Virus record (IMG/VR): IMGVR_UViG_3300021957_000035
Location: 1-60,823 of that record
Direction: 5' to 3' (one strand)
Source of the DNA: a virus
Lineage: Duplodnaviria > Caudoviricetes
DNA: 60,823 bases
Every line of letters starts with the position of its first letter. Positions within the stretch are counted from its first letter, which is position 1. Positions 1,943-25,960 of the stretch are shown in pieces. The position numbers were made by a program, and so were the translations under genes. The notes under the pieces are model-generated. The model was given only the letters and a program-made list of their open reading frames with translations. It did no database searches and was not told the DNA's origin.

Positions 1943-2173
1943 TTATTTAATAATATCAACTAGTTCATCGATATTATCATCGTACATTTCCATGTAAAAG
2001 TCGTCATCAGACTCATGCATGTTTACACCAGAACACATGGCACCAAAACCGTCTTCAAATACATCAGTAACAGTTGCAGTTGGTATTTCTGGCATTGTTT
2101 CAAAAGCTTTTATTCGGATAATGCTACCTTCTTTAAGCAAAGGCAAAGTCCGACTTAAGGACGTCTCTGACAT
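1943..2173 (-). CDS. hypothetical protein
   Basis: ORF following the RNAP gene; start uncertain. Confidence 0.55.
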   Translation of the reverse strand: MSETSLSRTLPLLKEGSIIRIKAFETMPEIPTATVTDVFEDGFGAMCSGVNMHESDDDFYMEMYDDNIDELVDIIK

Positions 2174-4295
2174 TTAAGTTTCCTTTCTCTGGAATTAAAT
2201 CTTCTGAATCTAGTTGCTGCAGAATATTCTCAAGAGGCAAGCTCTCATAAAGTTCTACAAACTTTTCTCTAACATGATAAAACATCTTATCCATGTTACC
2301 TGCATGACAACCAAAAGAGTCATGTACTACAGTAGTTGGATAGTCTGCATCATGTATACACATAGTTAAGTGTACAGCATCAAGACTATGAACCACATTA
2401 GGTGCAGCACCAGTCTTCTGTTTAGTTTCATTTACAGTTGTTTCTTCCCACACTTGAAGCTGTACTTTAAGAATATCTTCACCGTACTTAAGCTCTGTGC
2501 GCTTATTAGTAGGCTTTCGATAGGCTTGTACAACAGGAAATCCAGTAACAGGGGAAATCCAACTCATATGAACTTTCTTCTTGTTAGCTCTCTCTGCTAA
2601 ACTCTGAAACATCTTAAGTAGCTTTGCTGGCCCCTTAAGCTCTTCATAACAGGTCTTATACACCAGAGCGCCAAGGAGTGCGCCCCAGAGATGCTCTTTG
2701 TCTCTTAGATAGGTAGATATATCTCTAGTGTCTTCTATTACCTGCTGGCCCATACCGTAGGACGTACCACCATAGCCTAGAGTCATTACATTTCTCTTAA
2801 CAGTCTTACGTTGAATTTTCTTATCTTGAATATTCAACCAGTATGTCGGAAATAATTTTTCTCGTAGGTCACGGTTTTGATTACGCCATGTTTGAGCAGT
2901 CTTAAAGGCTACAGACTTTCTTTCAGACTTATCAGGGGCAGTTTCATATTCTCTTTGAAGACTAACAGCTGTTTTAAATACTGCATCAAATTGGTTTTCA
3001 ACAGAAGTATCTCGTTTACGTTCTAAGTTTTCCCATACCTTTTCTGCTATAAACATATAAACATCTCCAGGCAACTCACTTGGAACAAGATTTACTAAAG
3101 GTGCTACTTCATCGTCTTGAGACATAGCTACAAGGTGTTGAACGCCGTTATTAGAACCATCAATGTAAACTGGAAGACAAGAAGGAAAGTCTTCTATATT
3201 TCCCTCCCACTCTGTTAACATTTTAATTTCATAACAAGCGGCAAGAAAGCTAAATGGTTTATCTGCTTTCATCCAGTCAGTGCTTGTCATTGGGTTTGTA
3301 GCATACTCAATAAACGTTTTTGCATTGTCTATTACAAACTGTACTCGATCATCTAGACTTACTTTGTCATTACCCCAAATGTTTGCAGTATGAACATAAA
3401 GCCAATAAACACCGTTTTCCCCTAGCGGTACAGGTTCGTCTAGCATTAAGATGCCTTTAGCATTGTCACTAGACTGCTCATGTAAGAACGCTGTATTAGG
3501 GTAAATACGGCCTCGGAAGTCGAGGTTATACAAGTGATAGAAAGGCTTGCCTACGTGCTTCTCTGCAAGTCTCTGAATAGCTTCTGCTTCAATGATTAAC
3601 GAGGCCCGTTTAATCGGATCAATCTCTTTAGTAAATTTAAAGGGATTAACTTCAGAGTGCATACACGCTTTGTACGTATCAAATACAAAGTTATTAATAC
3701 GCCAACCTGTATGATTAAGTCTATTAAGAGTGTCTACAATATAAGTCATATCACTATTTTCAAAGTGATTTAAAGCTGCTTCGTAGCCTTTTTTAATTAC
3801 ACTTATACCTGTTACTTCGTGATACGGGTCTTTATGCCAGTTTTCAGCAGGTGTGTTAACTGGAAACATATCACATTTCTCAATGTCTACTAAGTCCATA
3901 AGCTCTTTAATAGCTTTCCAGTCTTTAGCAAACAAGAAATAAGATCTATGCTTATCTTTTTTACCGTTTTTATAAGTATGTTTTTTACGATAACCTAGTA
4001 TACCTAACTCAATGTAGCTAATAATTACAAACCAACCACCTTGAACGTCTAGTACACTATTTTGTTTTTGTCTAAGTTTTTGTCTAAGTCGTCTGCCAAT
4101 ACTAGATGCGACTTCTACTAGAGTTGCTTTTCTCTCTAACCCTTTTAGTATGTGTGAATAAGAAAATTCAATAATATCTCTAGGTGACATTGTGTCTAAG
4201 AAACTTGCGGATTGTCTCTTATCTAATGATTTTTGTCGATATTCCAGATCTTCAGTTAATAGGTCTAGAATGGTTTTTTCTTCCATATATGTCAA
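2133..4295 (-). CDS. single-subunit T7/T3-type DNA-directed RNA polymerase (720 aa)
   Basis: DFRGRIYP; motif A IDGSNNGVQH; motif B RKTVKRNVMTLGYG; PNVVHSLDA; motif C VHDSFGCH. Confidence 0.97.
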   Translation of the reverse strand: MTYMEEKTILDLLTEDLEYRQKSLDKRQSASFLDTMSPRDIIEFSYSHILKGLERKATLVEVASSIGRRLRQKLRQKQNSVLDVQGGWFVIISYIELGILGYRKKHTYKNGKKDKHRSYFLFAKDWKAIKELMDLVDIEKCDMFPVNTPAENWHKDPYHEVTGISVIKKGYEAALNHFENSDMTYIVDTLNRLNHTGWRINNFVFDTYKACMHSEVNPFKFTKEIDPIKRASLIIEAEAIQRLAEKHVGKPFYHLYNLDFRGRIYPNTAFLHEQSSDNAKGILMLDEPVPLGENGVYWLYVHTANIWGNDKVSLDDRVQFVIDNAKTFIEYATNPMTSTDWMKADKPFSFLAACYEIKMLTEWEGNIEDFPSCLPVYIDGSNNGVQHLVAMSQDDEVAPLVNLVPSELPGDVYMFIAEKVWENLERKRDTSVENQFDAVFKTAVSLQREYETAPDKSERKSVAFKTAQTWRNQNRDLREKLFPTYWLNIQDKKIQRKTVKRNVMTLGYGGTSYGMGQQVIEDTRDISTYLRDKEHLWGALLGALVYKTCYEELKGPAKLLKMFQSLAERANKKKVHMSWISPVTGFPVVQAYRKPTNKRTELKYGEDILKVQLQVWEETTVNETKQKTGAAPNVVHSLDAVHLTMCIHDADYPTTVVHDSFGCHAGNMDKMFYHVREKFVELYESLPLENILQQLDSEDLIPEKGNLNVRDVLKSDFAFA

Positions 4296-4858: not shown

Positions 4859-4861
4859 GAT

Positions 4862-5069: not shown

Positions 5070-5095
5070 TTATAGATGCGTTATTTTTCTCACTT
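5070..5095 (-). promoter_or_regulatory. candidate early promoter, class 1 (AAGTGAGAAAAATAACGCATCTATAA)
   Basis: 25/26 identical to 7577-7602; mostly intergenic and upstream of a gene start. Confidence 0.7.
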
Positions 5096-7576: not shown

Positions 7577-7602
7577 TTATAGATGCGTTGTTTTTCTCAC
7601 TT
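7577..7602 (-). promoter_or_regulatory. candidate early promoter, class 1 (AAGTGAGAAAAACAACGCATCTATAA)
   Basis: Immediately after the tape-measure terminator, heading the small-gene block; near-identical copy at 5070. Confidence 0.7.
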
Positions 7603-7622: not shown

Positions 7623-7649
7623 AAAAAAGGCCACTCCGAAGAGTGACCC
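7623..7649 (-). terminator. intrinsic terminator ending the structural operon
   Basis: GGTCACTC-TTCG-GAGTGGCC-TTTTTT. Confidence 0.9.
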
Positions 7650-7654
7650 TATAG

Positions 7655-13600: not shown

Positions 13601-13903
13601 CGAGACTCGTGTCTGAGATGATACTCGTGCTAAAGATTGAAAAGTAGAGTTTAATTCCCTACCTCTGCCAGTAACAAGAGCAATTTTATTTTCCATGTTA
13701 GTAATAGAGTCAGACGCTCTTGTAATGCCTTTTGTAAAAGATGCAAGGCTTAAAAACGCTGCACCTCCAATAGCTATTTTATTAAAAGCGCTTTGTAATC
13801 TTTTAGTAGACTGCTCAATATTACCAACAGATTTTTGTAACTTACCTAGATCTTGTCTAGCTTGAGTACTGTTACTGCGTACTCTAATTTCTACTCCACT
13901 CAT
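7655..13903 (-). CDS. tail tape measure protein (2082 aa)
   Basis: N-terminal tape-measure motif QFGQGLASGQLRGQELNSVLEQTPRIA; Gly-rich hydrophobic stretches; follows the tail chaperones. Confidence 0.93.
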   Translation of the reverse strand: MSGVEIRVRSNSTQARQDLGKLQKSVGNIEQSTKRLQSAFNKIAIGGAAFLSLASFTKGITRASDSITNMENKIALVTGRGRELNSTFQSLARVSSQTRVSFSTTAETFNRFGLALRGSGTSAKELLDVTKTINQAVTISGASSESARAAIVQFGQGLASGQLRGQELNSVLEQTPRIARAIADGIGIPFGQLRDAAAEGKLTTEAVLKSIQKAAPEIAQEFTLIEKTVDSVSNALRFRLQEALSLIARETGWSNIVIGSIERVTNALKFFTDNAKISFLLYRAEARIFINSVKELFAPLTSIFSIDFNPATAQKNLQENFDAFLLKAKEIISFDKFYDETTNQFDFSKFFKEFILPESFESNFNKAGQVVLTFVKNIKGLFNELFGEEIKIKKVPEFGAKILPASFTSQEVESEIGLFDKFLNKITEFSGEAIARLLNLTETIAPLFKSISDTVASVISSIQATIKGFGSYEGILEGTTTGLKKYYAEIEKILGLNEKSKNAQSFIEGLVPEANTDLSGKIRDQIEKIESNLFGQEFFLEAGVKIKTPGSIEKSFDFLEDNKYLLAAAATGLGLAITFPETTGAALQLAAIGAGLAFVSVIQAGFSRGLPVLLAIGGFELFIKGTDSDQEYQDKIKNFFKDITIDVRNIIIGGDQKGASSLVNDLSAFLAAVGDGIIEGIFPGLDFEAKFADAFVGALAFAIPLAMVGFKPARYVISGLAGALFGNDLIDLGKKILLTSIKTIFKGLVLGEIFSFTLQSAGLGEKEAEAYGKTLSGAFVGGQTGALLGTGVAGPIGGLIGAIGGTLIGAIAGAFLSPEVRSAALSFIDYIGNLISTTFKSIKDFFTPAEKTDEQKKILAGKQITTLQERLDKAKEREAGFEESITRLKDRLNNDFVGDDANAQQRIDQIQTQIDLLKIPELEAELNQVTSEFSDFNTNLLIANKAFKETAESVTSFEGVLLDSLVAAQRRQNNLNNIASPHFGEKASGGMITGAGGPKDDKIPHMLSNGEYVVQASAVKKFGPSFMDALNKGQVPQFKSGGGLGGPQSAIFGGLSASSLSLIQFMSGEEAAKLKAIAGINFTGKDYFEKVMGDKDSDVLNYLNEHAPDLSPALNINVKDENSLKELIELVNKETGTNPSNINAIQEHLIRRGTLKSTKDAYNSPDGFYKGLSVLSKQLGIDFPEYDGLRTIPKALMTTANLASAAIGGGGRWKSDQYRPLVRGWEKGLYGPKGDDITGFGPELRKAFFNGLPLAPEGAAYGASFGALKGLSSTILGTFKGLGNIVLGTINRDPKKLLSGALGFGSSVVKTGLGLSSIPVQAALYGLLGGTMYTAMGGLDYLLSGNRTYMGNARDLNMFEKKATHDDRGHPMIAPSNYSTMRSGLDFTDFDSFKNKFSKIDLSFLNKEQKRQAAIDASGYDLNYLLRHYNLVRESFQRPSGREKVGLQSTSIDNTWQGKVIPKYYETLDSPFLDIQTKEPKLTDSLDEFLQAYNVGLHEYGHVNQFLNMAKENPGHGKTDHDYISSWPSRINRTVLEADANSFLKQTSLADIEDTLKTLRASQTSYMAGSMISGTLTPEAFKDSLEVTELKEFEEFYEAFLEGNKTIGGKSQAAIVKFLYNNFGLKDTMKKSFEANKFATGGYVTGEGGPTDDKIPAMLSNKEFVVNAKQTSKFRPILEAINSGMVAGFQQGTGNSRLNIPVGNMAAVEPKLKLSPLEQQLKGVQEEIDHWENKLKDAKKTTAKANGDIEVLNDSLGAQALINERLIPLQNEEIALKKEIEIAAKGANKAVDGVAKAIKGLTLSAREMALGATFAQGIKDDFQTGFREALQTGDFMQIDLIDSFTKNYLNSFSQGFTDSLFGTIEEDKGEYTSTGMMGQLQKLGGGAASFGGEASPMAKEGEELTSPLFGEGGLFGSIISSIKNGVQGLTADTGDGGGLLGMIGKIPDFFGGLGKSLKLGLDSLLKPQGGSGGSGGASGGGWLGLISTGLSLFMNNGGIVPSTPYSKAGVDSVPAMLTPGELVVPANKVKSYQDNTSKQQNVVNLSISGDVSRQTRQEIIKMLPTISAGVNATNKENNYKGR

Positions 13904-13922
13904 ATGGACCTCCTTAATAAAA

Positions 13923-13968
13923 TTGCCCCCTAACGATTCTCTTATATTAGAGAGCCATCAGAGGGCAA
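13923..13968 (-). other. long intergenic RNA hairpin (processing site or terminator candidate)
   Basis: TTGCCCTCTGATGG.TCTCT / AGAGA.TCGTTAGGGGGCAA; pairs best on the minus strand through G-U. Confidence 0.55.
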
Positions 13969-13975
13969 AGTATTC

Positions 13976-14395
13976 TTAATCAGGGGTTGGTATGCCAATT
14001 TTAACTAGCACTTGTTCAATAAAGTATTTTGGTGCTTGTTTACTATGACCATTATTTAGTACACTAATATAGTCTACATTATTAAATATTTTTCCTTCTT
14101 GCTTTGCATTGGGGTTAAGCCCTAAAGCAAGTGCTACTAGTGTCTTTTTATTACCAATCCCTAGTGCTTCTTTAACAAGCAAACCAGTATCTAGAGTTGG
14201 TCCTGACATAGTTTTTTCATTTTCCCAACCTTGTCTAGCTTTACCAGTATCAACAGGAGTAACTATTTTAAGTTGTTCAGTAGCATAATCTATTTTTTCA
14301 TGTATATTTGCAGTAGCAAGACTTGAAACTTCTTGTTCAATTCTTTTCATTTCTTTTTGAAAATCAGCTACATCAATATTTACTTTGATAGACAT
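13976..14395 (-). CDS. HK97 gp10-like neck or tail completion protein
   Basis: TPVDTGKARQGW, NNVDYISVLNNGHSKQAP. Confidence 0.8.
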   Translation of the reverse strand: MSIKVNIDVADFQKEMKRIEQEVSSLATANIHEKIDYATEQLKIVTPVDTGKARQGWENEKTMSGPTLDTGLLVKEALGIGNKKTLVALALGLNPNAKQEGKIFNNVDYISVLNNGHSKQAPKYFIEQVLVKIGIPTPD

Positions 14396-14742
14396 TATTT
14401 TTGTCTCCAGTCTAAATTATCACCATCTCTAGCAGCTAACATTTTCTTAAGAAATTCGCCTTTAGGTACTGCTCTGTCAGGTTCTTGTAATAGCTTTTTA
14501 TTTGTATTTTCTTTTATAGCTTTTAAAGAAGGAAATAAATTTTCTCCGGATTCTTTAACACCTTGTGCCTTTAAAAGTAAATATGTACGTTGGTCTTCTT
14601 GCCAACCAATTGGTCTTTTATGAAAAAATTCTATCCATCTAAGGAGTTCATTATAAGGCATTTCTTCTTTTAAAACATACACAGGCATTTTTAAATGATA
14701 TGCAATTTCAAAAAGAGTTTCATCCTCTTGAGTTAGTTTCCC
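14395..14742 (-). CDS. tail assembly chaperone, frameshift extension (gpT-like)
   Basis: The -1 frame from G GGA AAC reads KLTQEDETLFEIAYHLK, then continues in frame into MPVYVL... Confidence 0.75.
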   Translation of the reverse strand, partial: GKLTQEDETLFEIAYHLKMPVYVLKEEMPYNELLRWIEFFHKRPIGWQEDQRTYLLLKAQGVKESGENLFPSLKAIKENTNKKLLQEPDRAVPKGEFLKKMLAARDGDNLDWRQK

Positions 14743-15038
14743 TCAGAATTTCCACCAGATAATCCAGAGAATTCAAGAATATTTTCTGATAATTCGTTTA
14801 ATGCAGCAATAGGGAAAGTACTAAATTCTTCGTTACTTAAGTCTTCTGCACCTACTACAGCAATTTTAATTACACCACGAAGGAGTTCTGTTTGAGAGTC
14901 TTCAGCTTTGCTCTTAGAAGTTTTTTTAATCATGTTTTGGACTTTAAGAACTTCACCTACTGACAATTGACGAACTTCAACTTCGTCTCCCATAAAAGGG
15001 AATTTTTTAGTAATTACTTTTCCAACTAAATGTTTCAT
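14733..15038 (-). CDS. tail assembly chaperone (gpG-like)
   Basis: Between tail tube and tape measure; ends in a slippery GGGAAAC. Confidence 0.8.
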   Translation of the reverse strand: MKHLVGKVITKKFPFMGDEVEVRQLSVGEVLKVQNMIKKTSKSKAEDSQTELLRGVIKIAVVGAEDLSNEEFSTFPIAALNELSENILEFSGLSGGNSEGN

Positions 15039-15046
15039 ATTTCTTC

Positions 15047-15286
15047 CTAACTAATCTTATCTTTTTCTGTAAATAAATTTGGGTTGTTTGCTTGAAAGTC
15101 ATCAAGCATTTTTCTGCACGTATGTAATACTGATAGTGTTTCCATAATTTCTTTTCCAATATCTGAGTCACTATCGAAATCTTGAAAGCGCTCAAAACTC
15201 TTACGAATACTAATATCTACACTTCGGCGCATATGCCTAAAGGTAGTTCGCATTACAAACGTCTTACTAAACGGTTTGTCTGTCAT
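15047..15286 (-). CDS. hypothetical protein
   Basis: ORF in the tail operon. Confidence 0.65.
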   Translation of the reverse strand: MTDKPFSKTFVMRTTFRHMRRSVDISIRKSFERFQDFDSDSDIGKEIMETLSVLHTCRKMLDDFQANNPNLFTEKDKIS

Positions 15287-15309
15287 ACTATATCTTTCTA
15301 ATAAGTTAA

Positions 15310-15333
15310 GGAAGCCCCCGCTAAGAGGCTTCC
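15310..15333 (-). terminator. terminator-like hairpin after the tail tube gene
   Basis: GGAAGCCTCT-TAGC-GGGGGCTTCC then TTAACTTATT. Confidence 0.65.
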
Positions 15334-15347
15334 AAAGTATTTTTAAT

Positions 15348-15878
15348 TTATGGTAGTGTTACTGGTCCAAAGAAATCAGACTGAGTTGACATAGTAACCG
15401 TAGCGGTTGTAGAGTCTGTCAAAGCAGGATTTACAAGGATAGCTTCCATTTTACCTGTAAAGTAAAATTCTGTGTTACCATAAGATAACGCTGTAGTTCC
15501 AGTAGCCAAGCTAGCTGCAAGTGTAGTTGCTTGTGAACACATCATAAAGCGGAATGCGCCTTGTGTACCAATAAGAGCGTGGAAAGCGTCCATGTCTTCT
15601 GGCACGTAGTTTACAGTAACTTCAAGTGTGGGAGCATCAGATTGCCCTTGTACCTGTGATGAAGTGTTTTGTCCATAAACAGGCACGTTTACGATGTTAG
15701 CAGGAGTACCAATTGATGGAAACTCACGTACTGATGGAATTCGTGAAATAGCAGAAGCGTTTGCTGTTACAAACAAACCTGCATACTCTGCTGCTGTGTC
15801 TACAGATGCAGCAGGTGTTGCCGCATGAAAGTCTAGGTATGAAAAAATACCTGAACTCAAAGATGAAATATGAGCCAT
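15348..15878 (-). CDS. major tail tube protein
   Basis: VREFPSIGTPANIVNVPVYG, QGQSDAPTLEVTVNY; position in the operon. Confidence 0.8.
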   Translation of the reverse strand: MAHISSLSSGIFSYLDFHAATPAASVDTAAEYAGLFVTANASAISRIPSVREFPSIGTPANIVNVPVYGQNTSSQVQGQSDAPTLEVTVNYVPEDMDAFHALIGTQGAFRFMMCSQATTLAASLATGTTALSYGNTEFYFTGKMEAILVNPALTDSTTATVTMSTQSDFFGPVTLP

Positions 15879-15881
15879 TTG

Positions 15882-16283
15882 TTATTCTCCGTATATTTTA
15901 AATGGTATTATATATTGTGCGCTATAAAGCGACTGATTAGCTGGGTCTAGCCCTTCTACATTTAAATAAGATTTTCCAAACTCTGTCTTATTAGTTAAAA
16001 TTTTATTTTCAAATGAATTGTCAAGTATATCTGATAATTGCATAATTCGGGTTTGTCCCTCACCTGCTTTAACAAATATTCTAACAATTAATAAACCTGA
16101 AAGGCTTTTATCACCGCCATAAGCTAAATGATCTGAAGCACTAGGAAGAATATTAAATCGACAAAATTCATTACTGTTTGAAATTGAACCCTGATAGTTT
16201 TCAGGATACATCGCTATGTTATTACTTGTCCAAGCTGATGAGGCAAAAACACTATTAACATCCGCTAAGATATTGTGAAACAT
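15882..16283 (-). CDS. tail terminator or completion protein
   Basis: Directly before the tail tube; GLLIVRIFVKAGEG pattern. Confidence 0.65.
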   Translation of the reverse strand: MFHNILADVNSVFASSAWTSNNIAMYPENYQGSISNSNEFCRFNILPSASDHLAYGGDKSLSGLLIVRIFVKAGEGQTRIMQLSDILDNSFENKILTNKTEFGKSYLNVEGLDPANQSLYSAQYIIPFKIYGE

Positions 16284-16284
16284 T

Positions 16285-16620
16285 TTAAGGTTCCTTTGTC
16301 AAAGTGGCTTCAATAGTGAAGTCGTTATCAGTGTGATCTGTTATATTGTAAACTACTGACCCTACAGTGAGTGTATCATAAACTGATAAATCAACGCCTG
16401 ATTTTAGAATAGCTTTATAATTAAAGCCATCTCCTGCAGGTCTTTCTGAAGACTCAATTATAACTGATACTGTAGCAGAAGTAGTAGTACTAACGGTATC
16501 ATCAGTAGCAAAATCATAGCTTGTAACTGCTTTAGTTGATAGTGTAGCAGTCTTAACAAGATCTCCTGTTCTATCAAAAGCTTTATTAACAGCAGCTGTT
16601 ACTTTTGCTGATAAAGACAT
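16285..16620 (-). CDS. head closure or stopper protein
   Basis: Position, size, beta-rich sequence. Confidence 0.55.
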   Translation of the reverse strand: MSLSAKVTAAVNKAFDRTGDLVKTATLSTKAVTSYDFATDDTVSTTTSATVSVIIESSERPAGDGFNYKAILKSGVDLSVYDTLTVGSVVYNITDHTDNDFTIEATLTKEP

Positions 16621-17126
16621 TAGTTAGCCCTCCACCAAGAAGAACCCATACCTTCAACGCCTCTCCGAATAAGATGACGTAAAGGTTTAATTACAATACT
16701 TGGTGTAATTGAAGTTCTTGTAACATCTCCATTAGTATCAGACAAGCTAATACTTCCAATAGAAATACTCTCAAAAGTTTGAGTAGTTTGTGCTAACAAA
16801 TCTTCATTGTTTAACAGATGCAATGCTTGTTCATAAACAGCAATTTTAACTGCATTAGGAATTTCTGACTCTGTAAATTTAACTTCTAAGTTTAATCTAG
16901 GATTATAATGAGAAGTATTTTTACGAGGCCATGCCAGAGCTTGGGAAGAACTAACAGCAGAACCAATCCAAGAACGATTGTCTATAAGCTGTGTAGCTGT
17001 TACTAATGCATCTTCTTTTAAAGCCTCTGCTGCGGTAGTCCAATTAGCACTATCGATGCGAGTCTCAAAATAAGTATCTGCAGCAGCAACGGCAACATAA
17101 CTATTAGTATTTAGAACTAAAGCCAT
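16620..17126 (-). CDS. head-tail adaptor (DnaT-like annotated family)
   Basis: NSYVAVAAADTYF, QALAWPR, IPNAVKIAVYEQAL. Confidence 0.75.
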   Translation of the reverse strand: MALVLNTNSYVAVAAADTYFETRIDSANWTTAAEALKEDALVTATQLIDNRSWIGSAVSSSQALAWPRKNTSHYNPRLNLEVKFTESEIPNAVKIAVYEQALHLLNNEDLLAQTTQTFESISIGSISLSDTNGDVTRTSITPSIVIKPLRHLIRRGVEGMGSSWWRAN

Positions 17127-17143
17127 TAGTCCCTCCTAACTTA

Positions 17144-18262
17144 TTATGAGTGGAAGACTGGCAAAATGCCCAAGTTCAGTGCGCTCATTTTACGAGTCCA
17201 AGATGCAGAAGCAGCATAAGTTGCGTTTGTAGCAAATGCGTTAGTTGCGCCTGACCAGTCATAGCCCATTGGGTGCATGATAAAGCCGTAACGATACCAA
17301 ATATTAGTTGAACCGCCACCAGTGTAAGAAGCCGCATTACGGTCTACTTCAACAGGAGTTGGAACATTTACAGGAGCAGAAGTAATTGAAGCTGGTTTAA
17401 TCAAGAAAGAACACTTAGTTGAACGAGCATTCAAGTCGCCTGAAGCAGCACCTGAAATCATTTGGTTTGCACGAGTCATAACCAAACGGAATTTTCCACC
17501 AAACACGGTTTGGAACTCAAGGTTGCCATCTTGTACACGAGTTTCGTCTACCAAGTTAGCAGCACGCATTTCAGCCATTGTTTCAGGTGAAGTTACGAGA
17601 TACATAAAGTCAGGTTCGTAGTCTTTGAAACCCATACCCAACGCTTTAAACAAACGTTCACCACGAGCAGCACCCGTAGCAGTTGAGTCAAACAAAGCAC
17701 GCTGATCAGATGCGCCTGTTGCAGCAGCACCAAATTCACCAAGTGCGTTAATGTCTACAAAGTGACCAGTGTTAGCAGCATCGCCATTTGTGTCAAATGC
17801 AATGTAACCACCTGCGCCTGAACCACCTTTGTCACCAAGAGTAACTTCGCTAAGTGCTACACCTTTAAGGCAAGACAACAAAGCATTACCTTCGTCATCA
17901 CCGCGTACTTGTGCAAAGTCACGAGCAATTTTGGCAAGACCATCTTGGCGTGAAACTACTTCTTGCAAATTAACTTGTTGCGCACCAAATGTACGAACAG
18001 TTTTAACGTAATCTGCAATGTCAGTTGTGATATCAGTGTAAGTACCATCTGTTGCACTTGACAGCGATGGAACGTTGATGTTAGCTGAAAGTGGCTTGTA
18101 GTAACGGAACTGACCAATAAAAGATTCGCCGTTAGCATTAATATCGTCACGTTGCCCTACAATACCTGAAGAATTTAGTTTCTTTTCAGTTGTGTATGCT
18201 TCATCTGCGTAAGCAGAGATAGCCAACGCTACGTTTTGAAAGTCTGTATTTGTAATAGCCAT
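17144..18262 (-). CDS. major capsid protein
   Basis: 372 aa following the scaffold; VEVDRNAA and YGFIMHPMGYDW coat-like motifs. Confidence 0.85.
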   Translation of the reverse strand: MAITNTDFQNVALAISAYADEAYTTEKKLNSSGIVGQRDDINANGESFIGQFRYYKPLSANINVPSLSSATDGTYTDITTDIADYVKTVRTFGAQQVNLQEVVSRQDGLAKIARDFAQVRGDDEGNALLSCLKGVALSEVTLGDKGGSGAGGYIAFDTNGDAANTGHFVDINALGEFGAAATGASDQRALFDSTATGAARGERLFKALGMGFKDYEPDFMYLVTSPETMAEMRAANLVDETRVQDGNLEFQTVFGGKFRLVMTRANQMISGAASGDLNARSTKCSFLIKPASITSAPVNVPTPVEVDRNAASYTGGGSTNIWYRYGFIMHPMGYDWSGATNAFATNATYAASASWTRKMSALNLGILPVFHS

Positions 18263-18291
18263 TTTATATTTCCTTGTATATAACTATCTTA

Positions 18292-18966
18292 TTAATAATT
18301 AAAACTACCTAGTTGCCCTTTGGCAGCAAGATTTAACACTTCTTGTGTTGACATCTCACTAAGTGGTTTGTTTTCATTAGTGTTTGAGACACCTGCTGGT
18401 GCCGCTGTACCCGCTCCTGAGTTAGCTTTAACTCGAAACAGGAATGAGTTATCTTCATTATCTGAGTAAGAGGTAATAAAGTCTTGAATAGTAGTGCCTG
18501 ACTTATGAACCCAACTACCGTTGTCATTCTGAACAAGTTGCTCAACAATATCACGGTAAGCTAGTTGACGACTACGATCATTGCGGAAATCTAAACTACC
18601 AAGCAATGAGTTAACAACGCTATCTCGATTTAACTTAGTATTCTCTTCTTCGTAGACTTTTAGTTTAGCTTCAAGATCAGCAATTTTCATTTCTGATAGT
18701 TCTTGAAGTTTTCCTTCTTCTTCGAGCCGCTTCATCGTTTCTTGTTTTTGTTGTTGTTCGATTTCAGCAGCTTTCTTAAGAGCCTCGTCTCGCTCTTTAG
18801 CCATGCGGTCAACATTAGACTTCATTTTAGAAAGTCTATTGGCAACCTCTTGTTCAATTGGATCAACCGTTTCAGATGTTTCCTCCTGAACATTTTCTTG
18901 TTCATTAGTCTCATTGGACTCTGTTGCAGTTACTTCTTCTTCAACTACTGTATTTTCTTCACTCAT
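18292..18966 (-). CDS. capsid scaffolding protein
   Basis: Acidic coiled-coil protein immediately before the capsid gene. Confidence 0.8.
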   Translation of the reverse strand: MSEENTVVEEEVTATESNETNEQENVQEETSETVDPIEQEVANRLSKMKSNVDRMAKERDEALKKAAEIEQQQKQETMKRLEEEGKLQELSEMKIADLEAKLKVYEEENTKLNRDSVVNSLLGSLDFRNDRSRQLAYRDIVEQLVQNDNGSWVHKSGTTIQDFITSYSDNEDNSFLFRVKANSGAGTAAPAGVSNTNENKPLSEMSTQEVLNLAAKGQLGSFNY

Positions 18967-18978
18967 AATATTTTCCTT

Positions 18979-19023
18979 TCAAGCACAGCTTGAGGTTAAT
19001 GTTTAATTTTGATTCACAGAATC
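18979..19023 (-). promoter_or_regulatory. tandem RNA stem-loops with an identical CUGUG apex in the scaffold leader
   Basis: GATT-CTGTG-AATC (19011-19023) and TCAAG-CTGTG-CTTGA (18979-18993), the latter abutting the SD. Confidence 0.5.
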
Positions 19024-19051
19024 TAAAAAGGTCATAGGCTATTACAAATAA

Positions 19052-22000
19052 CTATGGCCCGATACCATACCAGTCCTGCCCGTCTTTGAGCGGTGCTAGT
19101 ATGTCTTTTCTTGTTATTTTATTAGGAGGGTCAATAAGACCCTGATCTTTAGCTTCTTTAAGAAGCCTTTGGTAAGTTCTATAAGACATTCCTTGTCTGC
19201 GCATTTCTCTAAGGGTTTTTCTTATAGTATCGCCTTCTAGGGCATCTGCATAGATGGTCCTTAAAGCATCTTTTGCACGTCTTGCTTCACCTATATTAGT
19301 AAAGAAAGCATCGTGAATTGTTCCACTGTCTACGTTATTTTTACGCGCCCATAAATGAAAGCGCCTAACTATAACAGCATCGTTACTGTGGTTTCCATTA
19401 ACACCTAATCCAATCCTAGCATCATTAAGAGAGCCTTTACCTAAAAGCTTTCCGTCTTCAGCGCTGGATTCGTATATGTTAGATATTTTTCTGTTTGTAA
19501 CCGGATCTCTAAATTCAATACGCTCTTGAATTTTAGGACGGTATCTTTGTGTCATTATCTTGCCATCAAATGTAACCCACGGAATATCAACTTTTTGAGT
19601 TTCTTCAACGTAGGCTTTAGCAACTTGTTTCCAATAATTAATAAAATTATCAGTAACAGGTGCTCTATCAGCAAGATTTTTAGACATAATTCTAGATATT
19701 TCTGAGAACTCTTTTGGCCCAATAATACCCCTGCGAGCATTAGTAAGCTTATTAACAAAGTCACCAACATCAGGGTGTATATCTTGAGCTTGTTTTAATA
19801 GTGTACGACCAACAGGTTCGTTTTTATTAATTAACTCTAAGAGTTCGCTGCGAAAACTTTTAAGTTCTTCTACTGTACCTGTTGCACCTAATCGTTCGGC
19901 TACTTTAATTTTACCGTCAACAACTCTAAGGTTAGTACCTAGATTATCTTTAGTAACTGTTATAAAGCCTTTTTCGTCAAGTACTTTAGACAACTTATTA
20001 GCCACGTTAGCGGTTTTCGTAGCAGCTCCAGCGCCATAAAATGATACCATGTTTTGAGCTTTGGCTGCTTTAGCAAGATCTTCCCATGTAAGATTAGCAT
20101 CTCTGAGTGCAGGTATTTTAAGAAATTCTGGGTCATTTACTGTATCCATTGCAACTAAGTCATAAAGACGGTTTTTTTGAGTTGTAGCTAAAACATTTGA
20201 AGCTTGCGATACTGCCCTGTCGCCTGTAGAAAGCCCGATGATCTGAGCTCCACTGGATGAGGCATCATTTTCAATCATAAGTTTTGTTTTATAACTAGTA
20301 AGAGGTTTGTCTTGTTTAAGGTGTTTATTTATTCTAGCATATTCAATTGCCATTCTACCCATCTTAGGTACTTCTGGCCCTTCTAAACCCCGTATTAACG
20401 GATGTTCAAGAAACTCTCTTAGACGTCTGTCTCTTTGAGTTTTAGACATCATAATGTTACCTAGCTCAATAATCTTAGATTCATTACGTTTAAATATAGC
20501 ATTACGACCTGCTTGAGTAAGTGCTTCAGTTCCTGGACCGATTAAAGCTCCCATTTGAATTCTAAGTTCATCTAAAGCTTCAGTGCTCATATTAACAGCT
20601 TTACCTGAATTAAGAAAAGGTCTAACTAGTTCGCCGCCCGTAGGTGTAAGATATCCTCTGTGATATACTCGCCCCCTAGAATCAATAAACGCTTGAGTCC
20701 TAAAGTTTTTCCCTCTTTGAGCATGATACTTAGCAGTAGACATAAGTCCATAACCTTGTTCTCCTCGATTTAAAATTTCATGACGAAACTCATTAATACT
20801 GTCATAGTACTTAGATCTCCCTCTAGGATCTCTGAATCTAGCAATATCGTCCATAAACCCGAAGAACTCGTTATCAACTCCATATTCAACATCCATTACA
20901 TGATTAAGCATTTGAGCCATCTCACGATCAATTTGTTTAGGATCGTAATCTGGAAATTTATCTCTAGAGATTAAAGGTACCCCTGTTTCATTACCTCTGG
21001 CATCTACATATGTCTTTTTGTTAGCTTTTACATAAAGTCGATCTCTATCGTAAACAGTTCCAAGTCTTCTAGCAATAGTTACTTTACGTTCTGCTTCTTG
21101 AAGTTTAAGTAAAGTCTTATCTACAACAATTACTTCTCTAGAAATGCTATCTGCCCAACCACCTGAAGCTCTACCTGTATCTAAATCTAAAACACCTCTT
21201 CGAGTCTTACCTCTAAATTGAACTTTAATAAGGCCTTGATCTACCATAAAGTCAAGTATTTTAGATCCTTCTTTATGAAAGTCTTGCAAAGTATGTTTAG
21301 TAAAGGGTATGATATTCTCAAAATCTTTAGAAAATCTTTTTCCTATATTAATAGCTAAAGTATCATAATCAGTAGATTGCCCTGATGCAACTAGTTTAGC
21401 AATATTAGTTAAACTATCTAAAGCTTTTTCATCAAATAATTTAGAAGTAGGTTTTTTGTTTATAATTAAAAACTCAGCATCTAAAAGTCTACGTATAGTC
21501 TCTCTATTACGAGCAGCTAACTTAGTAATCAAAGAGTCAGAAGGTTCAGTTACTAGCTTTTGTAATTTTAAAAGTTTAGCAAAACCAGAATCTTTTTTTA
21601 ATTGCTTAATAAGTCGTTTTTTATTAGGATATTTATCAGTGAACTTTTTAAAATAAATTCTTAATGGCGCTCTGCCTTTAAAGAACATTTTAGTAGCTAA
21701 TTTTTTACCTTCAGTTCTACGCCATGCATCAATAAATCTTTGATCTTTTAGCTGGCTATCAATTAGGTTTTCAAAAGTATAATACTTACCCATAATTTGA
21801 ACTTGAGGTTTGTCTTGAGATAAATAACTAACAAACATTTCAGAACGCTTACGAGATCGTGTATCTAACAGCCTAGAAACGTTTTGAACAGCAAATCTAT
21901 TTTCTGCTCTTAATACAGCCGAAACATCATTCCAAGGTTTTTTATCTTTAGCATAACGTTCAAATACAACTCTTAAGTTTTCAATTACAACAGTTTGTTG

Positions 22001-23407
22001 ATTAACTGAAACTTTGTCATCTAATCCTGCAGCAATGCTTTCAATAAAATCTTTTTCATCTTGTTTAAGAAGTTTAGAATTACGCATAAAGTCAATACGT
22101 TCTTGATACAAGTTAAAATCAGGATCATAAATGTTATTGTTTTTAATTTCACCTGTTAACGGGTCAGCGCTAAAGTTACGTTCATCAAACTCGTTACCTA
22201 CTCTGCGCCTTGAAGCAGTTTTACCTGCAAGACTAGTACCTTTATAGTCTGTTAAAGACATAGTTTTAGAGTAATCATCAGCATCAAGTAAAAACATTTG
22301 CCTTACTAAAGCTTTCTGTTCTGGTGAGCGTAGCATAGAACTAGGGCGTTTAGCTTGAATATCTACTGCTTGCTCTCTAAGTTTTTGTTTAGGTGCAAAT
22401 ATAGCAGTAGCATTAGTAGCTTTATTTCTCAAAGCTTGAATAGACAATGCTTTACCTTTAGGTGTAACATACTGTTCAGCCTTAAGCCTTCCTTGTCTAA
22501 ATAAATTAGCTTGGTCCATTCCTCCAAGAAGTTTAGCTTGAATATCATAAGCTTGACGTTTTAACCATGCTCCGTAAGATTCTACTTTAGGTGCAACACC
22601 TGAAAGCGATTCTTCTTTCTTTTTAGCAAGGTTTGTTTTATTAAGTCTATTAGTGGTTTCTTTTTGAAGCTCTTCTTTAGATTTTAATACAGGCACCAAA
22701 GAACTACGACAATTCCAATGCAAAGGAGGAGTAAAGCGTCTATCGCTAACATCGTAAATCTTTCCATTATGATAAGAACAAATAGGGCTAGTACGGCTAT
22801 CAAGCACAGCAGTAAATACATAGCCTTTAACTACATGAGAATTTGCTTCTACAACTTTATTTAAAGCTGCTGTTTGAGTACTAGTTATAGAAGTTCTAGT
22901 TAAAGTTTTAGCCTGATGTTCAGTAAGCTTAGTAGTTTTAAGCACGTTGTTAATAATATCTTTAGGTGCTTCGCCTTTAGCAAGTCCTGCTTTTACTTTA
23001 GATTGTATTCTAACAAGTTCACCTGATGAAATGTTTTTCATATTTTGAGTAACTGTTTTAACACCTTTAATGTTTGATCCAGTTATTTCAGCAAGTAATT
23101 CTTTACTACGTGGCTTTGAAACCTTATAAAATTTATTTAGTTCTTTGTTTAGATTGTCCGAATGAAAGTCCAGTTGAGACGTTGAAAATTCTTTTAAAGA
23201 ACTAGTTTGATGAGTTAACATTTCTCGACCAAAGCGATTTACTTCAGGAGTAACATCATTAGTTAGTCTCTCTGAAAGAATGTCTCTTAAACGCTTCCTA
23301 TGCCTACGCATAATACGTCTGTTTTGTAACTGTACGCCTTCTTCGTATAATCTTACGTCAGTCATATGATCAACAATACGATCATAAAGTTTTAAATTGA
23401 TATCCAT
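19052..23407 (-). CDS. MuF (SPP1 gp7-like) head protein fused to a T7-superfamily RNA polymerase; putative virion RNAP
   Basis: N-terminus AVLDSRTSPIC...PPLHWNCRS (MuF); C-terminus DSRGRVY, ENDASSSGAQ, KAQNMVSFYG, NHSNDA, IHDAF. Confidence 0.9.
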   Translation of the reverse strand: MDINLKLYDRIVDHMTDVRLYEEGVQLQNRRIMRRHRKRLRDILSERLTNDVTPEVNRFGREMLTHQTSSLKEFSTSQLDFHSDNLNKELNKFYKVSKPRSKELLAEITGSNIKGVKTVTQNMKNISSGELVRIQSKVKAGLAKGEAPKDIINNVLKTTKLTEHQAKTLTRTSITSTQTAALNKVVEANSHVVKGYVFTAVLDSRTSPICSYHNGKIYDVSDRRFTPPLHWNCRSSLVPVLKSKEELQKETTNRLNKTNLAKKKEESLSGVAPKVESYGAWLKRQAYDIQAKLLGGMDQANLFRQGRLKAEQYVTPKGKALSIQALRNKATNATAIFAPKQKLREQAVDIQAKRPSSMLRSPEQKALVRQMFLLDADDYSKTMSLTDYKGTSLAGKTASRRRVGNEFDERNFSADPLTGEIKNNNIYDPDFNLYQERIDFMRNSKLLKQDEKDFIESIAAGLDDKVSVNQQTVVIENLRVVFERYAKDKKPWNDVSAVLRAENRFAVQNVSRLLDTRSRKRSEMFVSYLSQDKPQVQIMGKYYTFENLIDSQLKDQRFIDAWRRTEGKKLATKMFFKGRAPLRIYFKKFTDKYPNKKRLIKQLKKDSGFAKLLKLQKLVTEPSDSLITKLAARNRETIRRLLDAEFLIINKKPTSKLFDEKALDSLTNIAKLVASGQSTDYDTLAINIGKRFSKDFENIIPFTKHTLQDFHKEGSKILDFMVDQGLIKVQFRGKTRRGVLDLDTGRASGGWADSISREVIVVDKTLLKLQEAERKVTIARRLGTVYDRDRLYVKANKKTYVDARGNETGVPLISRDKFPDYDPKQIDREMAQMLNHVMDVEYGVDNEFFGFMDDIARFRDPRGRSKYYDSINEFRHEILNRGEQGYGLMSTAKYHAQRGKNFRTQAFIDSRGRVYHRGYLTPTGGELVRPFLNSGKAVNMSTEALDELRIQMGALIGPGTEALTQAGRNAIFKRNESKIIELGNIMMSKTQRDRRLREFLEHPLIRGLEGPEVPKMGRMAIEYARINKHLKQDKPLTSYKTKLMIENDASSSGAQIIGLSTGDRAVSQASNVLATTQKNRLYDLVAMDTVNDPEFLKIPALRDANLTWEDLAKAAKAQNMVSFYGAGAATKTANVANKLSKVLDEKGFITVTKDNLGTNLRVVDGKIKVAERLGATGTVEELKSFRSELLELINKNEPVGRTLLKQAQDIHPDVGDFVNKLTNARRGIIGPKEFSEISRIMSKNLADRAPVTDNFINYWKQVAKAYVEETQKVDIPWVTFDGKIMTQRYRPKIQERIEFRDPVTNRKISNIYESSAEDGKLLGKGSLNDARIGLGVNGNHSNDAVIVRRFHLWARKNNVDSGTIHDAFFTNIGEARRAKDALRTIYADALEGDTIRKTLREMRRQGMSYRTYQRLLKEAKDQGLIDPPNKITRKDILAPLKDGQDWYGIGP

Positions 23408-23434: not shown

Positions 23435-23884
23435 TTAAAATTTTGATAGAAACCTTGCAATGTGATGTACAAAAGGTAACATTGTAAGTGCCATTAATAA
23501 ATTTAAGCCTGTATGAGCTATTGCTATTCTTAGCGTATCACCCTTGGGCATTCCGTCAGATACTAGCAAACCTGCTAGCCAAATAGTTCCTGTAGTTCCA
23601 ATGTTTGCTCCTAGTACCGCTGCTACAGCAGCAGGTAAAGGGACGACCCCTGAAGCCACTAACGCAATAATTGCAGTAGTAGAAAGAGAAGACGACTGCC
23701 AAAGCAGTGTCATTATAATTGCTCCAAAAAACATATAAATCGGGTTAGCAATAAACCAATTTAAATGGTCTACGTTACCTATTGACTTCATTCCTCCGGA
23801 AAACATTTTAAGCCCTACATAAAATACTATAAGGCCAACTACGATTTGTAAGTAATTGTTTGTTAGTACCTGTAAATAATTCAT
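23435..23884 (-). CDS. Na+/Pi-cotransporter family protein (single repeat)
   Basis: QSSS and GANIGTT signatures; hydrophobic. Confidence 0.85.
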   Translation of the reverse strand: MNYLQVLTNNYLQIVVGLIVFYVGLKMFSGGMKSIGNVDHLNWFIANPIYMFFGAIIMTLLWQSSSLSTTAIIALVASGVVPLPAAVAAVLGANIGTTGTIWLAGLLVSDGMPKGDTLRIAIAHTGLNLLMALTMLPFVHHIARFLSKF

Positions 23885-23886: not shown

Positions 23887-25458
23887 CTATTCTTCAATAT
23901 CTATCTGTGGATCAGCGCTAGTTTGAACTGCTAACGGATCAGTTTGTATTTCTTCAATTGCTTCTTCATCACTATAGTCAGCGGGTAAGAAGTCATTGTA
24001 CTTAGCAATGTTAATCCAAGTTGAACGGCTAATAATCCCTGATTGATACCACTCAGAAACAAGGCGCATAGCACCTTCACCACCTACAATAGGAGAAAAG
24101 TCACTAGACATTTGGAATTCTAAGTCATCACCTGTATACATAGTGTTGTAATACCAGTTAAGCATAAATGCCATTACTTCGCGAATAGTACCTGAGACTT
24201 TAGCGTTAAGTGTACCTAGCTGCGCTGTCTGAGAAGCATTACGGATTTCTAGTGCTACACCTGAAGCTGCTTGCTCCGGTGAAAGCATACGAATACCCAT
24301 CTTAGCCATTTCTTCGACTGTACCTTGAATAGCTTTTTCCATGTCGCCTAAAGCTGACGTAGGAGTTTCAAGTACAGTAATAGATTCGTCTTTACGAACT
24401 CTAAGCCAAGTACCTAACCCTGCGTTTACGATGTCGTCAAATTCCTCGTCTGTCATATCTGATTGTACAACAGGGGTATAAGTAGCAGCACCGTAAAGCA
24501 AATGGTTTCGTCTCGATACTTTGTTATAGAGAGAAACTTCACGATCAACTAGCGGCATAAGAACAGGTTCAACTGGTTCATATTGGCCGTTAAGAGGCCA
24601 AGCAGGAATACGCATTAAGCGTTCACCAAACATAGTTGGATAAACTGTATTAACTTTTGTAAAGCCTATTTCGCTAACTGATTCTTTATAGTCTTGAGAT
24701 ATATCACCATTAAGAACTTTAATTTCGTTGTTAGTATCTGGATGTTCATAGTAGTCTAACACAAGACGACCTGATTCATCAATGTAGTGATCACAGACTG
24801 TGTCTACATAATCAGGGTGCCAAGGATTTTCTGGTTTGTATTTTTCTACTAAGTAACGAGTAACCCAACGAGTTAAAGTCTTTTGCCGTGTAATAGGGTG
24901 AGTAGACAACTGAATGTTAATAACGTTTTCAGCTTCAATTACTACTGGATACGGCTTAATCATAGCTCGTTCTTCAGGAGTTAAATTGTCATACTCTTGT
25001 TCGCTAACCTGTGGTCTATCTACATAAACCCAAGACCTTGATGTTTGAAGTTCTTCCCAAAGAGCATTATCAAGAAAGTTAAATAGCGATCTACCGTCTA
25101 GTGTAAAATCATTCTTTAACCATTGTTTAGCATCATCTGGTAGTTCTTCTGGAAGTTCTAAATGAGAGTCTTTACGTAATAAAGCACTAATAAGTACTTT
25201 ACAGTATTGAGCTGTCAAACCTGGAAGTTCTGACTCTGATCGATAAAAGTCATACTGTCGTTGGCTCATGCTAGGTGAAAAAGGAATAAGTAAGTTTTTA
25301 TATTCCGGTTCTAAATACTCATCGTGTGCTTTAACGTTATCTTGTCCTTGCAGAACCGCCCTTGACCGTTTCCAAAGTGGTTTCATAGAATGATAACTTG
25401 CACTTGGATCGGCAACAGACCTTTTAACACTTTTGGTTGGTTTAGTTAACTGTGCCAT
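23887..25458 (-). CDS. portal protein
   Basis: 523 aa, first large head gene; SGVALEIR and ISRSTW motifs. Confidence 0.8.
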   Translation of the reverse strand: MAQLTKPTKSVKRSVADPSASYHSMKPLWKRSRAVLQGQDNVKAHDEYLEPEYKNLLIPFSPSMSQRQYDFYRSESELPGLTAQYCKVLISALLRKDSHLELPEELPDDAKQWLKNDFTLDGRSLFNFLDNALWEELQTSRSWVYVDRPQVSEQEYDNLTPEERAMIKPYPVVIEAENVINIQLSTHPITRQKTLTRWVTRYLVEKYKPENPWHPDYVDTVCDHYIDESGRLVLDYYEHPDTNNEIKVLNGDISQDYKESVSEIGFTKVNTVYPTMFGERLMRIPAWPLNGQYEPVEPVLMPLVDREVSLYNKVSRRNHLLYGAATYTPVVQSDMTDEEFDDIVNAGLGTWLRVRKDESITVLETPTSALGDMEKAIQGTVEEMAKMGIRMLSPEQAASGVALEIRNASQTAQLGTLNAKVSGTIREVMAFMLNWYYNTMYTGDDLEFQMSSDFSPIVGGEGAMRLVSEWYQSGIISRSTWINIAKYNDFLPADYSDEEAIEEIQTDPLAVQTSADPQIDIEE

Positions 25459-25759: not shown

Positions 25760-25849
25760 AACGATTTCTTTCTATTAATAAAAACAATATACATTAAAAT
25801 AAACTTTAAGGTATACTTTAAAGTATATTATAAATAAACCTAGCGGTTA

Positions 25850-25868
25850 TTCTTAAACGTCAGGTATT
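25850..25868 (-). promoter_or_regulatory. phage RNAP promoter, class 2 late variant (AATACCTGACGTTTAAGAA)
   Basis: Identical to 25942 and 50915; heads the head/tail operon. Confidence 0.85.
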
Positions 25869-25894: not shown

Positions 25895-25941
25895 TGAATA
25901 GAGACTGTCAGATGTTTAATCTGTCTCTTTGTTATCTTTTA

Positions 25942-25960
25942 TTCTTAAACGTCAGGTATT
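25942..25960 (-). promoter_or_regulatory. phage RNAP promoter, class 2 late variant
   Basis: Exact copy of the motif at 25850, 92 bp upstream. Confidence 0.85.

Follow-up and report, generated by a model that had tools for sequence, protein, structure and literature searches.

The virus record IMGVR_UViG_3300021957_000035 of IMG/VR, analysed here over its whole length of 60,823 nucleotides (nt; the window), carries on its minus strand, at 19052-23407, a single uninterrupted open reading frame (ORF) of 1451 codons in which a MuF head-morphogenesis protein is joined to a single-subunit RNA polymerase (RNAP) of the T7 type. The encoded protein of 1451 amino acids (aa) is a member of two families at once, MuF and T7-like RNAP. 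Its two domains, its invariant catalytic residues, the position of its gene beside the portal gene, a second RNAP gene in the same genome and two classes of promoter-like motifs fit a programme in which a virion RNAP is followed by a non-virion RNAP. We consider it probable that the fusion protein is loaded into the capsid and injected as an early RNAP that starts such a two-polymerase programme. The record is linear and 89% complete, with nearly all genes on the minus strand.

Profile searches identify both halves of the protein. In Pfam, Phage_Mu_F (PF04233) matches aa 134-237, equivalent to nt 22697-23008, with E 9.9e-15 and a score of 55.7 bits (cut-off 29.6), spanning profile positions 3-111 of 112. 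RNA_pol (PF00940), with a cut-off of 22 bits, matches aa 1028-1415 at E 6.6e-7, scoring 28.9 bits in the search with the fusion protein and 29.4 bits in the genome-wide search. No other Pfam family exceeds its cut-off in the 1451-aa protein, which is the sole PF04233 match in the record. Among the PHROGs, phrog_241 (head morphogenesis) covers aa 59-334 with E 1.3e-49 and phrog_414 (T7-type RNA polymerase) covers aa 900-1141 with E 4.4e-24; a search of the whole fusion protein against PDB sequences returned nothing relevant (best E 0.86). These results agree with the original prediction, made from the letters of the sequence, that the 1451-aa ORF is uninterrupted and has a MuF signature at about 22700-22930. 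That prediction had also called for a domain search and a structure prediction; both domains were found and a T7-type fold was modelled. Its domain boundaries need revision, having placed the polymerase in the C-terminal ~600 aa and left about 600 aa unassigned between the two domains. Because the structural model aligns to T7 RNAP residues 86-883, the polymerase module is about 800 aa long (aa ~651-1451), and the intervening stretch therefore measures about 315 aa (aa 335-650).

The polymerase module (aa 651-1451) was modelled with AF2 from an alignment of 23 sequences, the module itself and 22 full-length homologues at 51-86% identity, giving a mean predicted local distance difference test score (pLDDT) of 84.6 and a predicted template modelling score (pTM) of 0.79. 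Foldseek found 74 PDB matches to this model at E ≤ 1e-3, the best being T7 RNAP at E 3e-20, and the first 50 rows among the 74 are all T7 RNAP or the mitochondrial RNAPs of yeast and human. Structural comparison with VIA aligned 517 residues to the T7 RNAP elongation complex (Z 31.9, root-mean-square deviation 3.4 Å) and placed model residues 1-800 on T7 residues 86-883 of the initiation intermediate 3e2e_A (Z 27.1). The mitochondrial RNAPs follow at Z 24-28, the N4 mini-vRNAP (a form of the N4 virion RNAP; 3c46_B) at Z 17.7 and N4 RNAPII at Z 15.4. As modelled, the module contains thumb, palm and fingers together with the greater part of the T7-fold N-terminal domain, and by these predicted structures it stands closer to T7 RNAP and the mitochondrial RNAPs than to the virion RNAP of N4.

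The signature motifs of the family were located in the order in which they had been predicted: DSRGRVY at 909-915, NDASSSGAQ at 1047-1055 (motif A), K1116-x7-Y1124-G1125 (motif B), NHSNDA at 1339-1344 and IHDAF at 1364-1368 (motif C). In T7 RNAP, D537 and D812 are the catalytic aspartates and Y639 selects ribonucleotides. Alignment of profiles with hhalign (probability 94.8; reference sequence, gene 1 of NC_001604) sets DSRGRVY on T7 DWRGRVY at 421-427, D1048 on D537, H1340 on H784, and H1365 and D1366 on H811 and D812. Motif B was misplaced by hhalign owing to an indel, and its assignment rests instead on the K-x7-YG spacing, which equals that of T7 K631-Y639. D909, R911, G912, R913, Y915, D1048, K1116, Y1124, G1125, H1340, D1343, H1365 and D1366 are invariant in the 23 sequences, so that both catalytic aspartates are intact, as had been claimed. 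Equally correct was the observation that the arginine four residues before the motif B lysine is replaced by alanine with a lysine next to it: T7 reads R-S-V-T-K here and the fusion reads LAKAAK at 1111-1116, with Ala1112 at the position of R627, a contact to the nucleotide phosphates in T7, and a nearly invariant Lys1113 as its neighbour. The loss of R627 concerns one residue and gives no ground to exclude the module from the T7-like RNAP family. Judged by its residues and predicted fold, the module appears to be a complete and catalytically competent T7-fold RNAP.

The remainder of the protein was modelled as aa 1-700 from 29 sequences (pLDDT 79). The model has a confident N-terminal part, a second confident domain at aa ~350-600 and a low-confidence linker at aa 606-657. 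Against BFVD it gave 86 matches at E ≤ 1e-3. Most of those that have a name are head-morphogenesis or minor capsid proteins, and among them are MuF fusions with a Zeta-toxin domain and, in phage Xp12, with an ADP-ribosyltransferase. The same aa 1-700 model, searched as a whole and not with the middle domain folded separately, had zero Foldseek matches in the PDB at E ≤ 1e-3, and a VIA-wide comparison returned only generic helical-bundle matches to aa 12-195 (Z ≤ 10.3). The middle domain has no family match in Pfam, and a search of the ESM Atlas with aa 340-650 gave no usable match; across the 29 sequences it holds nine invariant residues (G390, K396, P429, R437, N469, R479, R484, W492 and P581). 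Three homologues of 1584-1603 aa (L056, L047 and L070) have an apparent in-frame insertion of ~100-130 aa in the MuF module, near query aa 252-256.

The fusion is conserved as a unit. Relatives are encoded in at least 534 IMG/VR stretches. ORF lengths were counted in the best 80 IMG/VR loci: 30 ORFs run off contig ends, and 49 of the 50 complete ones measure 1402-1603 aa, the exception (L025) having a frameshift at aa ~613, within the linker. A search with the polymerase part alone yielded 435 proteins at E ≤ 1e-3 among 8000 scored; the best 120 of these comprise 97 with both Pfam domains, 18 with PF04233 only and five with PF00940 only (817-1180 aa), so that PF04233 occurs in 115 of them. When aa 340-1451 was compared with 1.84 billion representatives, 143 matches were found at E ≤ 1e-3, and all six of the distant full-length representatives scanned (25-38% identity) begin with PF04233. 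At the DNA level, exact contig pieces from two sequencing runs tile the gene, one of which (21324-21724) spans the linker. The misassembly that the original prediction had listed among its possible refutations is not borne out, since exact contigs from two DNA runs cross the junction. Contigs of the RNA-library runs X9 and X16 cover 29 of 30 bins of the fusion gene; because carry-over of DNA is possible, no expression is claimed from them.

A distant relative, EBPR siphovirus 1 (29% identity), has its polymerase interrupted at the active site. Its gp47 ends inside motif B (...KAAKAQNMV) and is followed by an HNH endonuclease gene; the 87 nt that precede gp49, translated in its frame, give TFYGAGERTG.... 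The break matches the Rfam group I intron with E 1.4e-8 and 40.5 bits, short of the gathering score of 50. Because the reading frame resumes and a group I intron lies between, gp47 and gp49 are taken as one intron-split MuF-RNAP gene; together they keep the same catalytic residues.

The nearest named relatives of the window are the roseophages DSS3_VP1 and DSS3_PM1, which share 62% identity over the whole fusion protein and in which the homologue, of 1463 aa, is annotated just as a "minor head protein-like protein". These phages belong to the Naomviridae and have deoxyuridine (dU) in place of deoxythymidine in their DNA (PMC8323127). The gene order of the window equals that of DSS3_VP1: 5'-3' exonuclease, primase/helicase, ribonucleotide reductase, terminase, tail fibres, portal, MuF-RNAP, scaffold, major head protein, tape measure, a block of small genes and a 720-aa RNAP. 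All 32 related loci with a complete portal ORF have the portal upstream of the fusion on the same strand, and in 29 of them the gap is 23-87 nt. The predicted placement of the gene between portal and scaffold thus holds, with the amendment that in the window a 149-aa ORF, 23435-23884(-), intervenes on the portal side. This ORF matches PF02690 (Na+/Pi-cotransporter; E 2.2e-14, profile positions 2-104 of 137) and is a sporadic insert: a gap of ~488 nt occurs in three of the 32 related loci, the ORF is missing from a locus 98% identical to the window (L006), and in one contig of run X16 position 23434 is followed directly by 23888. The insert is possibly a fragment of an auxiliary or moron gene.

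The 720-aa RNAP encoded near the left end of the window is a candidate non-virion RNAP. It shares only ~20% identity with the fused RNAP over 142 aa, and DSS3_VP1 likewise has both polymerases. The second RNAP is present in three of five related records, the two without it being 71% and 51% complete, and was not found in the partial record of EBPR siphovirus 1, itself a fragment. Because all three of these records are fragments, they do not count as evidence that the gene is absent.

Two promoter-like motifs accompany the two polymerases. The first, M1, had been noticed originally as a repeat at 5070 and 7577 and is real, with two exact copies where none are expected. In the form AAAAAGTGAGAAAA-n5-GCATCTATAATGA it occurs once or twice in DSS3_VP1 and in the related genomes G001 and G003, always just after the tape measure gene, and it was found in 77 IMG/VR stretches at 1-4 copies apiece. 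A tape-measure homologue lies upstream in 64 of the 77, the 720-aa RNAP downstream in 35 and the MuF-RNAP upstream in 6; the orientation is consistent in every case, and the two stretches with no such neighbour are very short. Conservation extends over ~38 nt. The M1 core forms no stable N4-type hairpin. Right after the TATAAT in which M1 ends, a perfect inverted repeat of 4-7 base pairs (bp) is found in 52 of 73 unique copies, as against ~11 in shuffled sequences (43 against ~2.7 for stems of at least 5 bp). Stems include GATAC, GAACT and GATAAA, with copies at 7545-7576 of the window and in the loci L107-L183; the second M1 copy of the window lacks the repeat. Because the stem sequences differ, the repeat suggests a selected hairpin, either in DNA form or at the transcript's 5' end.

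The second motif, M2, has six matches in the window with at most three mismatches, where 0.01 are expected, and was also recovered by de novo search. Its copies precede the replication, terminase and portal modules; the copy at 50912-50933 is overlapped by the 3' end of a 178-aa ORF resembling methyltransferases dependent on S-adenosylmethionine, 50925-51461(-) (PF13489, E 4.7e-8). Counterparts of M2 vary among the relatives: G003 has the CTGACGTTAAAGAA core of the window, G001 has TGCCGACTAATGAAGA and DSS3_VP1 has AATAGGGTGCGTTAAA. In the 720-aa RNAP, the segment aligned with the specificity loop of T7 RNAP hardly differs between the window and G003, and has diverged in G001 and DSS3_VP1. Since motif and loop vary in parallel, the comparison fits a promoter role in which M2 would be read by the 720-aa RNAP.

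The original proposal, an RNAP loaded through MuF for injection and early transcription independent of the host, is partly supported, in that all features open to computation agree with it. These observations suggest a model for the infection cycle in which loading, ejection, activity and host independence are patterned on publications on SPP1 gp7, MuF-effector fusions, N4 and P23-45. The fusion protein would be made late, from the M2-driven portal operon, and its MuF module would dock on the portal, so that a few copies would be enclosed in the procapsid, as has been described for SPP1 gp7. At infection the protein would leave the capsid with the DNA and begin transcribing from the M1 promoters, which are invariant in the family and lie behind the terminator of the tape measure gene. 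The M1 transcripts would carry the gene for the 720-aa RNAP, which would then read the genome-specific M2 motifs before the replication and structural modules. The outcome would be a programme needing little or no host RNAP, and such a low requirement would suit a family whose cultured members have dU-containing DNA.

Several points weigh against this model. A protein of 165 kDa would have to traverse the tail channel, a step for which N4 provides the only analogy. The fused polymerase lacks the T7 R627 equivalent. M1 ends in a perfect TATAAT in all instances, so that the host sigma-70 holoenzyme could read it. The pairing of M1 with the fused RNAP and of M2 with the 720-aa RNAP would follow from logic and four genomes, among which the two that share M2 are the closest relatives. 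The published papers searched hold no virion proteome or transcription data on the family, and the available text of the DSS3_VP1 paper makes no mention of RNA polymerase (PMC8323127). Finally, genes for DNA polymerase, dCMP deaminase and a YfbR-type protein (PF00476, PF00383 and PF12917) are all missing from the 89%-complete record; by synteny with DSS3_VP1 they would fall in the missing ~11% between the record ends, and their absence has no bearing on the use of dU.

An unlikely alternative retains packaging and injection and assigns the early promoters differently. M1 would be a host sigma-70 promoter through which, as in T7, the host enzyme expresses the early genes along with the 720-aa RNAP, and the injected polymerase would instead pull the genome into the cell by transcription elsewhere, prime replication or read M2. 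Besides the invariant TATAAT, this alternative can appeal to the reliance of T7 early genes on the host RNAP, which is established knowledge, and to the indirect way in which M1 and M2 have been assigned to their polymerases. It accounts poorly for the conservation of M1, which extends over ~38 nt across phages 62-68% identical in protein and differing in base composition, far beyond what sigma-70 needs. M1 also lacks a −35 element at the right spacing, AAAAGT standing there at 17 nt; a sigma-70 scan of window positions 1-20000 listed neither M1 site and found no enrichment of sites (66 against 61.6 ± 7.2 expected). In the dU-DNA relatives, moreover, the thymines of the −10 element would be uracils (PMC8323127).

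Delivery could also be absent altogether, a reading that we regard as quite improbable: MuF would serve head assembly only, and the polymerase, still fused or cleaved at the linker, would act late in the infected cell, for instance by transcribing the late genes or by filling some packaging-coupled role. The gene does lie in the late structural operon behind M2, and the flexible basic linker at aa 606-657, where one homologue is frameshifted, could be the place of such a cleavage. Between the portal and major head genes, however, no gene for a prohead protease was seen, and of 50 complete ORFs 49 keep the fusion in a single frame. An RNAP working late in the cytoplasm would have no need to be linked to a portal partner of low copy number, a free RNAP is already encoded by the phage, and published readings of C-terminal MuF fusions take them as capsid cargo.

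That the polymerase module might be a degenerate, non-catalytic relic serving as a structural or DNA-binding head or ejection protein is very improbable. The Pfam match of 28.9 bits is weak, the search of PDB sequences was empty and the R627 equivalent is lost, which speaks for a relic; yet the catalytic aspartates, the lysine, tyrosine and glycine of motif B and the equivalents of H784 and H811 are invariant in 23 sequences and present in gp47/gp49 of EBPR siphovirus 1, and the whole palm-fingers-thumb fold is kept (Z 31.9). A homing intron in motif B is a further argument, such introns typically targeting conserved catalytic sequence. We reject an inactive relic on the invariant active site, the intact predicted fold and the placement of the intron. 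An artefact of assembly or gene calling, for which no support was found beyond the one frameshifted ORF among 50, has practically no chance of being correct and is ruled out by the recurrence of the same single ORF in hundreds of independent contigs and two cultured phages and by the exact junction-spanning contigs from two DNA runs.

Table 1. Coordinates of the MuF-RNAP fusion gene, its modules, neighbouring genes and promoter-like motifs; positions refer to the window unless another record is named.
Feature	Position	Strand	Basis or remark
MuF-RNAP fusion gene, 1451 aa	19052..23407	-	single ORF; Pfam PF04233 and PF00940
MuF / SPP1 gp7-like head-morphogenesis module, aa 59-334 (Pfam core aa 134-237)	22406..23233	-	phrog_241, PF04233, structure matches
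Conserved middle domain, aa ~350-600	21608..22360	-	pLDDT mostly 85-95; invariant residues
Basic low-confidence linker, aa 606-657	21437..21592	-	pLDDT <50; lysine plus arginine fraction 0.23
Predicted T7-fold single-subunit RNA polymerase module, aa 658-1451	19055..21436	-	predicted fold, hhalign, invariant residues
Canonical T7-like RNAP, 720 aa, candidate non-virion RNAP	2133..4295	-	PF00940 E 7.7e-88, phrog_414 E 2.1e-136
Portal protein gene	23887..25458	-	phrog_145 E 9.9e-53, PF13264; upstream of MuF-RNAP
Scaffolding protein gene	18292..18966	-	phrog_206 E 6.8e-13; directly downstream of MuF-RNAP
Major head protein gene	17144..18262	-	phrog_247 E 5.2e-28
Tail tape measure protein gene, 2082 aa	7655..13903	-	phrog_3519 E 1.9e-61
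Intrinsic-terminator-like hairpin closing the structural operon	7627..7650	-	10-bp stem and T run; precedes M1 copy 1
M1 copy 1 (GTGAGAAAAACAACGCATCTATAA)	7577..7600	-	just after the tape-measure terminator
M1 copy 2	5070..5093	-	~775 nt upstream of the 720-aa RNAP gene
M2 promoter-like motif (AATACCTGACGTTTAAGAATAA)	25847..25868	-	upstream of the portal/MuF-RNAP operon
M2, further copies	25939-25960, 1919-1940, 50912-50933, 53892-53913, 59235-59256		motif scan
Group I intron with HNH gene inside MuF-RNAP motif B	L002 9179-10039 (EBPR siphovirus 1, JF412302)		exons annotated gp47 and gp49

Two further features of the window lie outside the modules discussed above. A 759-aa ORF, 39680-41959(-), is made up of repeats with a period of 30 nt (families D1-D3), lies in a stretch of strong positive GC skew (+0.315), matches nothing in Pfam or the PHROGs and adjoins the tail-fibre gene at 41972-45985. 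A SegE-type GIY-YIG homing endonuclease gene, 58061-58591(-) (PF19835, E 3.4e-30), separates the 5'-3' exonuclease gene from that of the primase/helicase.

No description of a MuF-RNAP fusion was found in the searchable literature, including text from PMC8323127, PMC5512222, PMC12697855, PMC12669031, PMC11806420, 10.1101/2025.10.29.685362, PMC10770324, PMC5576092 and PMC10783043, a search from which subscription journals and the supplementary tables of PMC8323127 (genes) and PMC5576092 (MuF domains) fall outside; the term "RNA polymerase" is absent from the available text of both papers. Some relatives have been associated with Pelagibacter by a single-particle study (PMC12669031). Taken at its widest, the interpretation would be that an abundant and poorly sampled marine family, the Naomviridae and their relatives, runs a two-polymerase programme independent of host RNAP, launched by a portal-tethered and injected MuF/T7-fold RNAP that reads a family-invariant promoter of ~38 nt, possibly containing uracil; T7-type RNAPs carried in virions would then have arisen a second time, independently, and a MuF cargo would for the first time be seen to serve the phage's own gene expression. 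To this broad statement we give slightly less than even credence. Were the injection of such a fused RNAP confirmed, it would explain the early gene expression of siphophages with dU-DNA, amount to direct proof that C-terminal MuF cargo is injected, correct the database names "minor head protein-like" and "head morphogenesis", and provide biotechnology with a new pair of small RNAP and promoter (M1), possibly tolerant of uracil-DNA. The enzyme is a compact T7-fold polymerase attached to a widespread head-protein delivery module, and cultured phages of Ruegeria pomeroyi DSS-3, a tractable host, share the same architecture.

Virion-borne RNAPs are known from N4-like phages, from phiKZ/AR9-like jumbo phages, from crAss-like phages and from P23-45, and each of these lineages has revealed a new viral escape from dependence on host transcription. 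T7 RNAP itself is a free early protein, made by the host RNAP and absent from the virion. The fused RNAP resembles it in fold, in motifs A, B and C, in the DxRGRxY signature and in the H784 equivalent, and differs in its low identity (13-18%), in the lack of R627 and in a stretch from motif B to the H784 equivalent that is ~70 residues longer; the 720-aa RNAP, for its part, is a plain member of the T7 RNAP (Autographiviridae) family. The dU-DNA jumbo phages PBS2 and AR9 bring their own RNAP into the cell and encode a second one, and their transcription is independent of the host enzyme. They differ from the present phage in that they are jumbo myoviruses whose RNAPs are multisubunit enzymes related to the cellular ones.

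In N4, the single-subunit, T7-related RNAP gp50 is carried in the capsid and injected to transcribe the early genes, and a second phage RNAP follows (PMC4496689, PMC5512222). The present phage shares with N4 a single-subunit RNAP related to that of T7 and a second phage RNAP, both known here from their genes, with carriage in the capsid proposed. The differences are considerable: gp50 has ~3500 aa, lacks MuF and is directed into the capsid by a C-terminal region of its own (PMC5512222), in contrast with the 1451-aa fusion and its N-terminal MuF module; the fused polymerase scores Z 17.7 against the N4 mini-vRNAP and 31.9 against T7 RNAP; and, unlike N4, the present phage has a siphovirus-type genome with a tape measure gene. 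Its M1 core shows no N4-type hairpin, although an inverted repeat follows M1 in most of the unique copies. The gp50 layout, a central polymerase with N- and C-terminal regions of its own for injection and encapsidation, is not that of the fusion. The profile of N4-like RNA polymerases, phrog_2166, matches the fusion at E 0.0035 only, and the fusion is not a member of the N4 virion RNAP family. RNAP modules in virions have been stated to occur solely in N4-like phages (PMC5512222).

The Thermus phage P23-45 offers the closer parallel of an RNAP fused to a structural protein: in gp96 the polymerase is joined to the tape measure protein, and it transcribes the pre-early genes, including that of the non-virion RNAP gp64 (PMC10770324). 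Both systems combine an RNAP domain on a structural carrier with a second RNAP gene and two promoter motifs, but the P23-45 enzymes are two-barrel RNAPs, the carrier is the tail tape measure protein with the RNAP at its N-terminus, and the late genes are left to the host RNAP. In its carrier the fusion is most like the MuF polymorphic toxins and polyvalent proteins, with which it shares an N-terminal MuF domain, a C-terminal cargo and a gene adjacent to the portal, and whose C-terminal parts have been proposed to be cargo delivered to the host (PMC6316719, PMC5576092, PMC5512222). Whereas those fusions carry a toxin or a host-modifying enzyme, the cargo here would be a polymerase of ~800 aa serving the phage's own gene expression, in phages that are lytic and marine.

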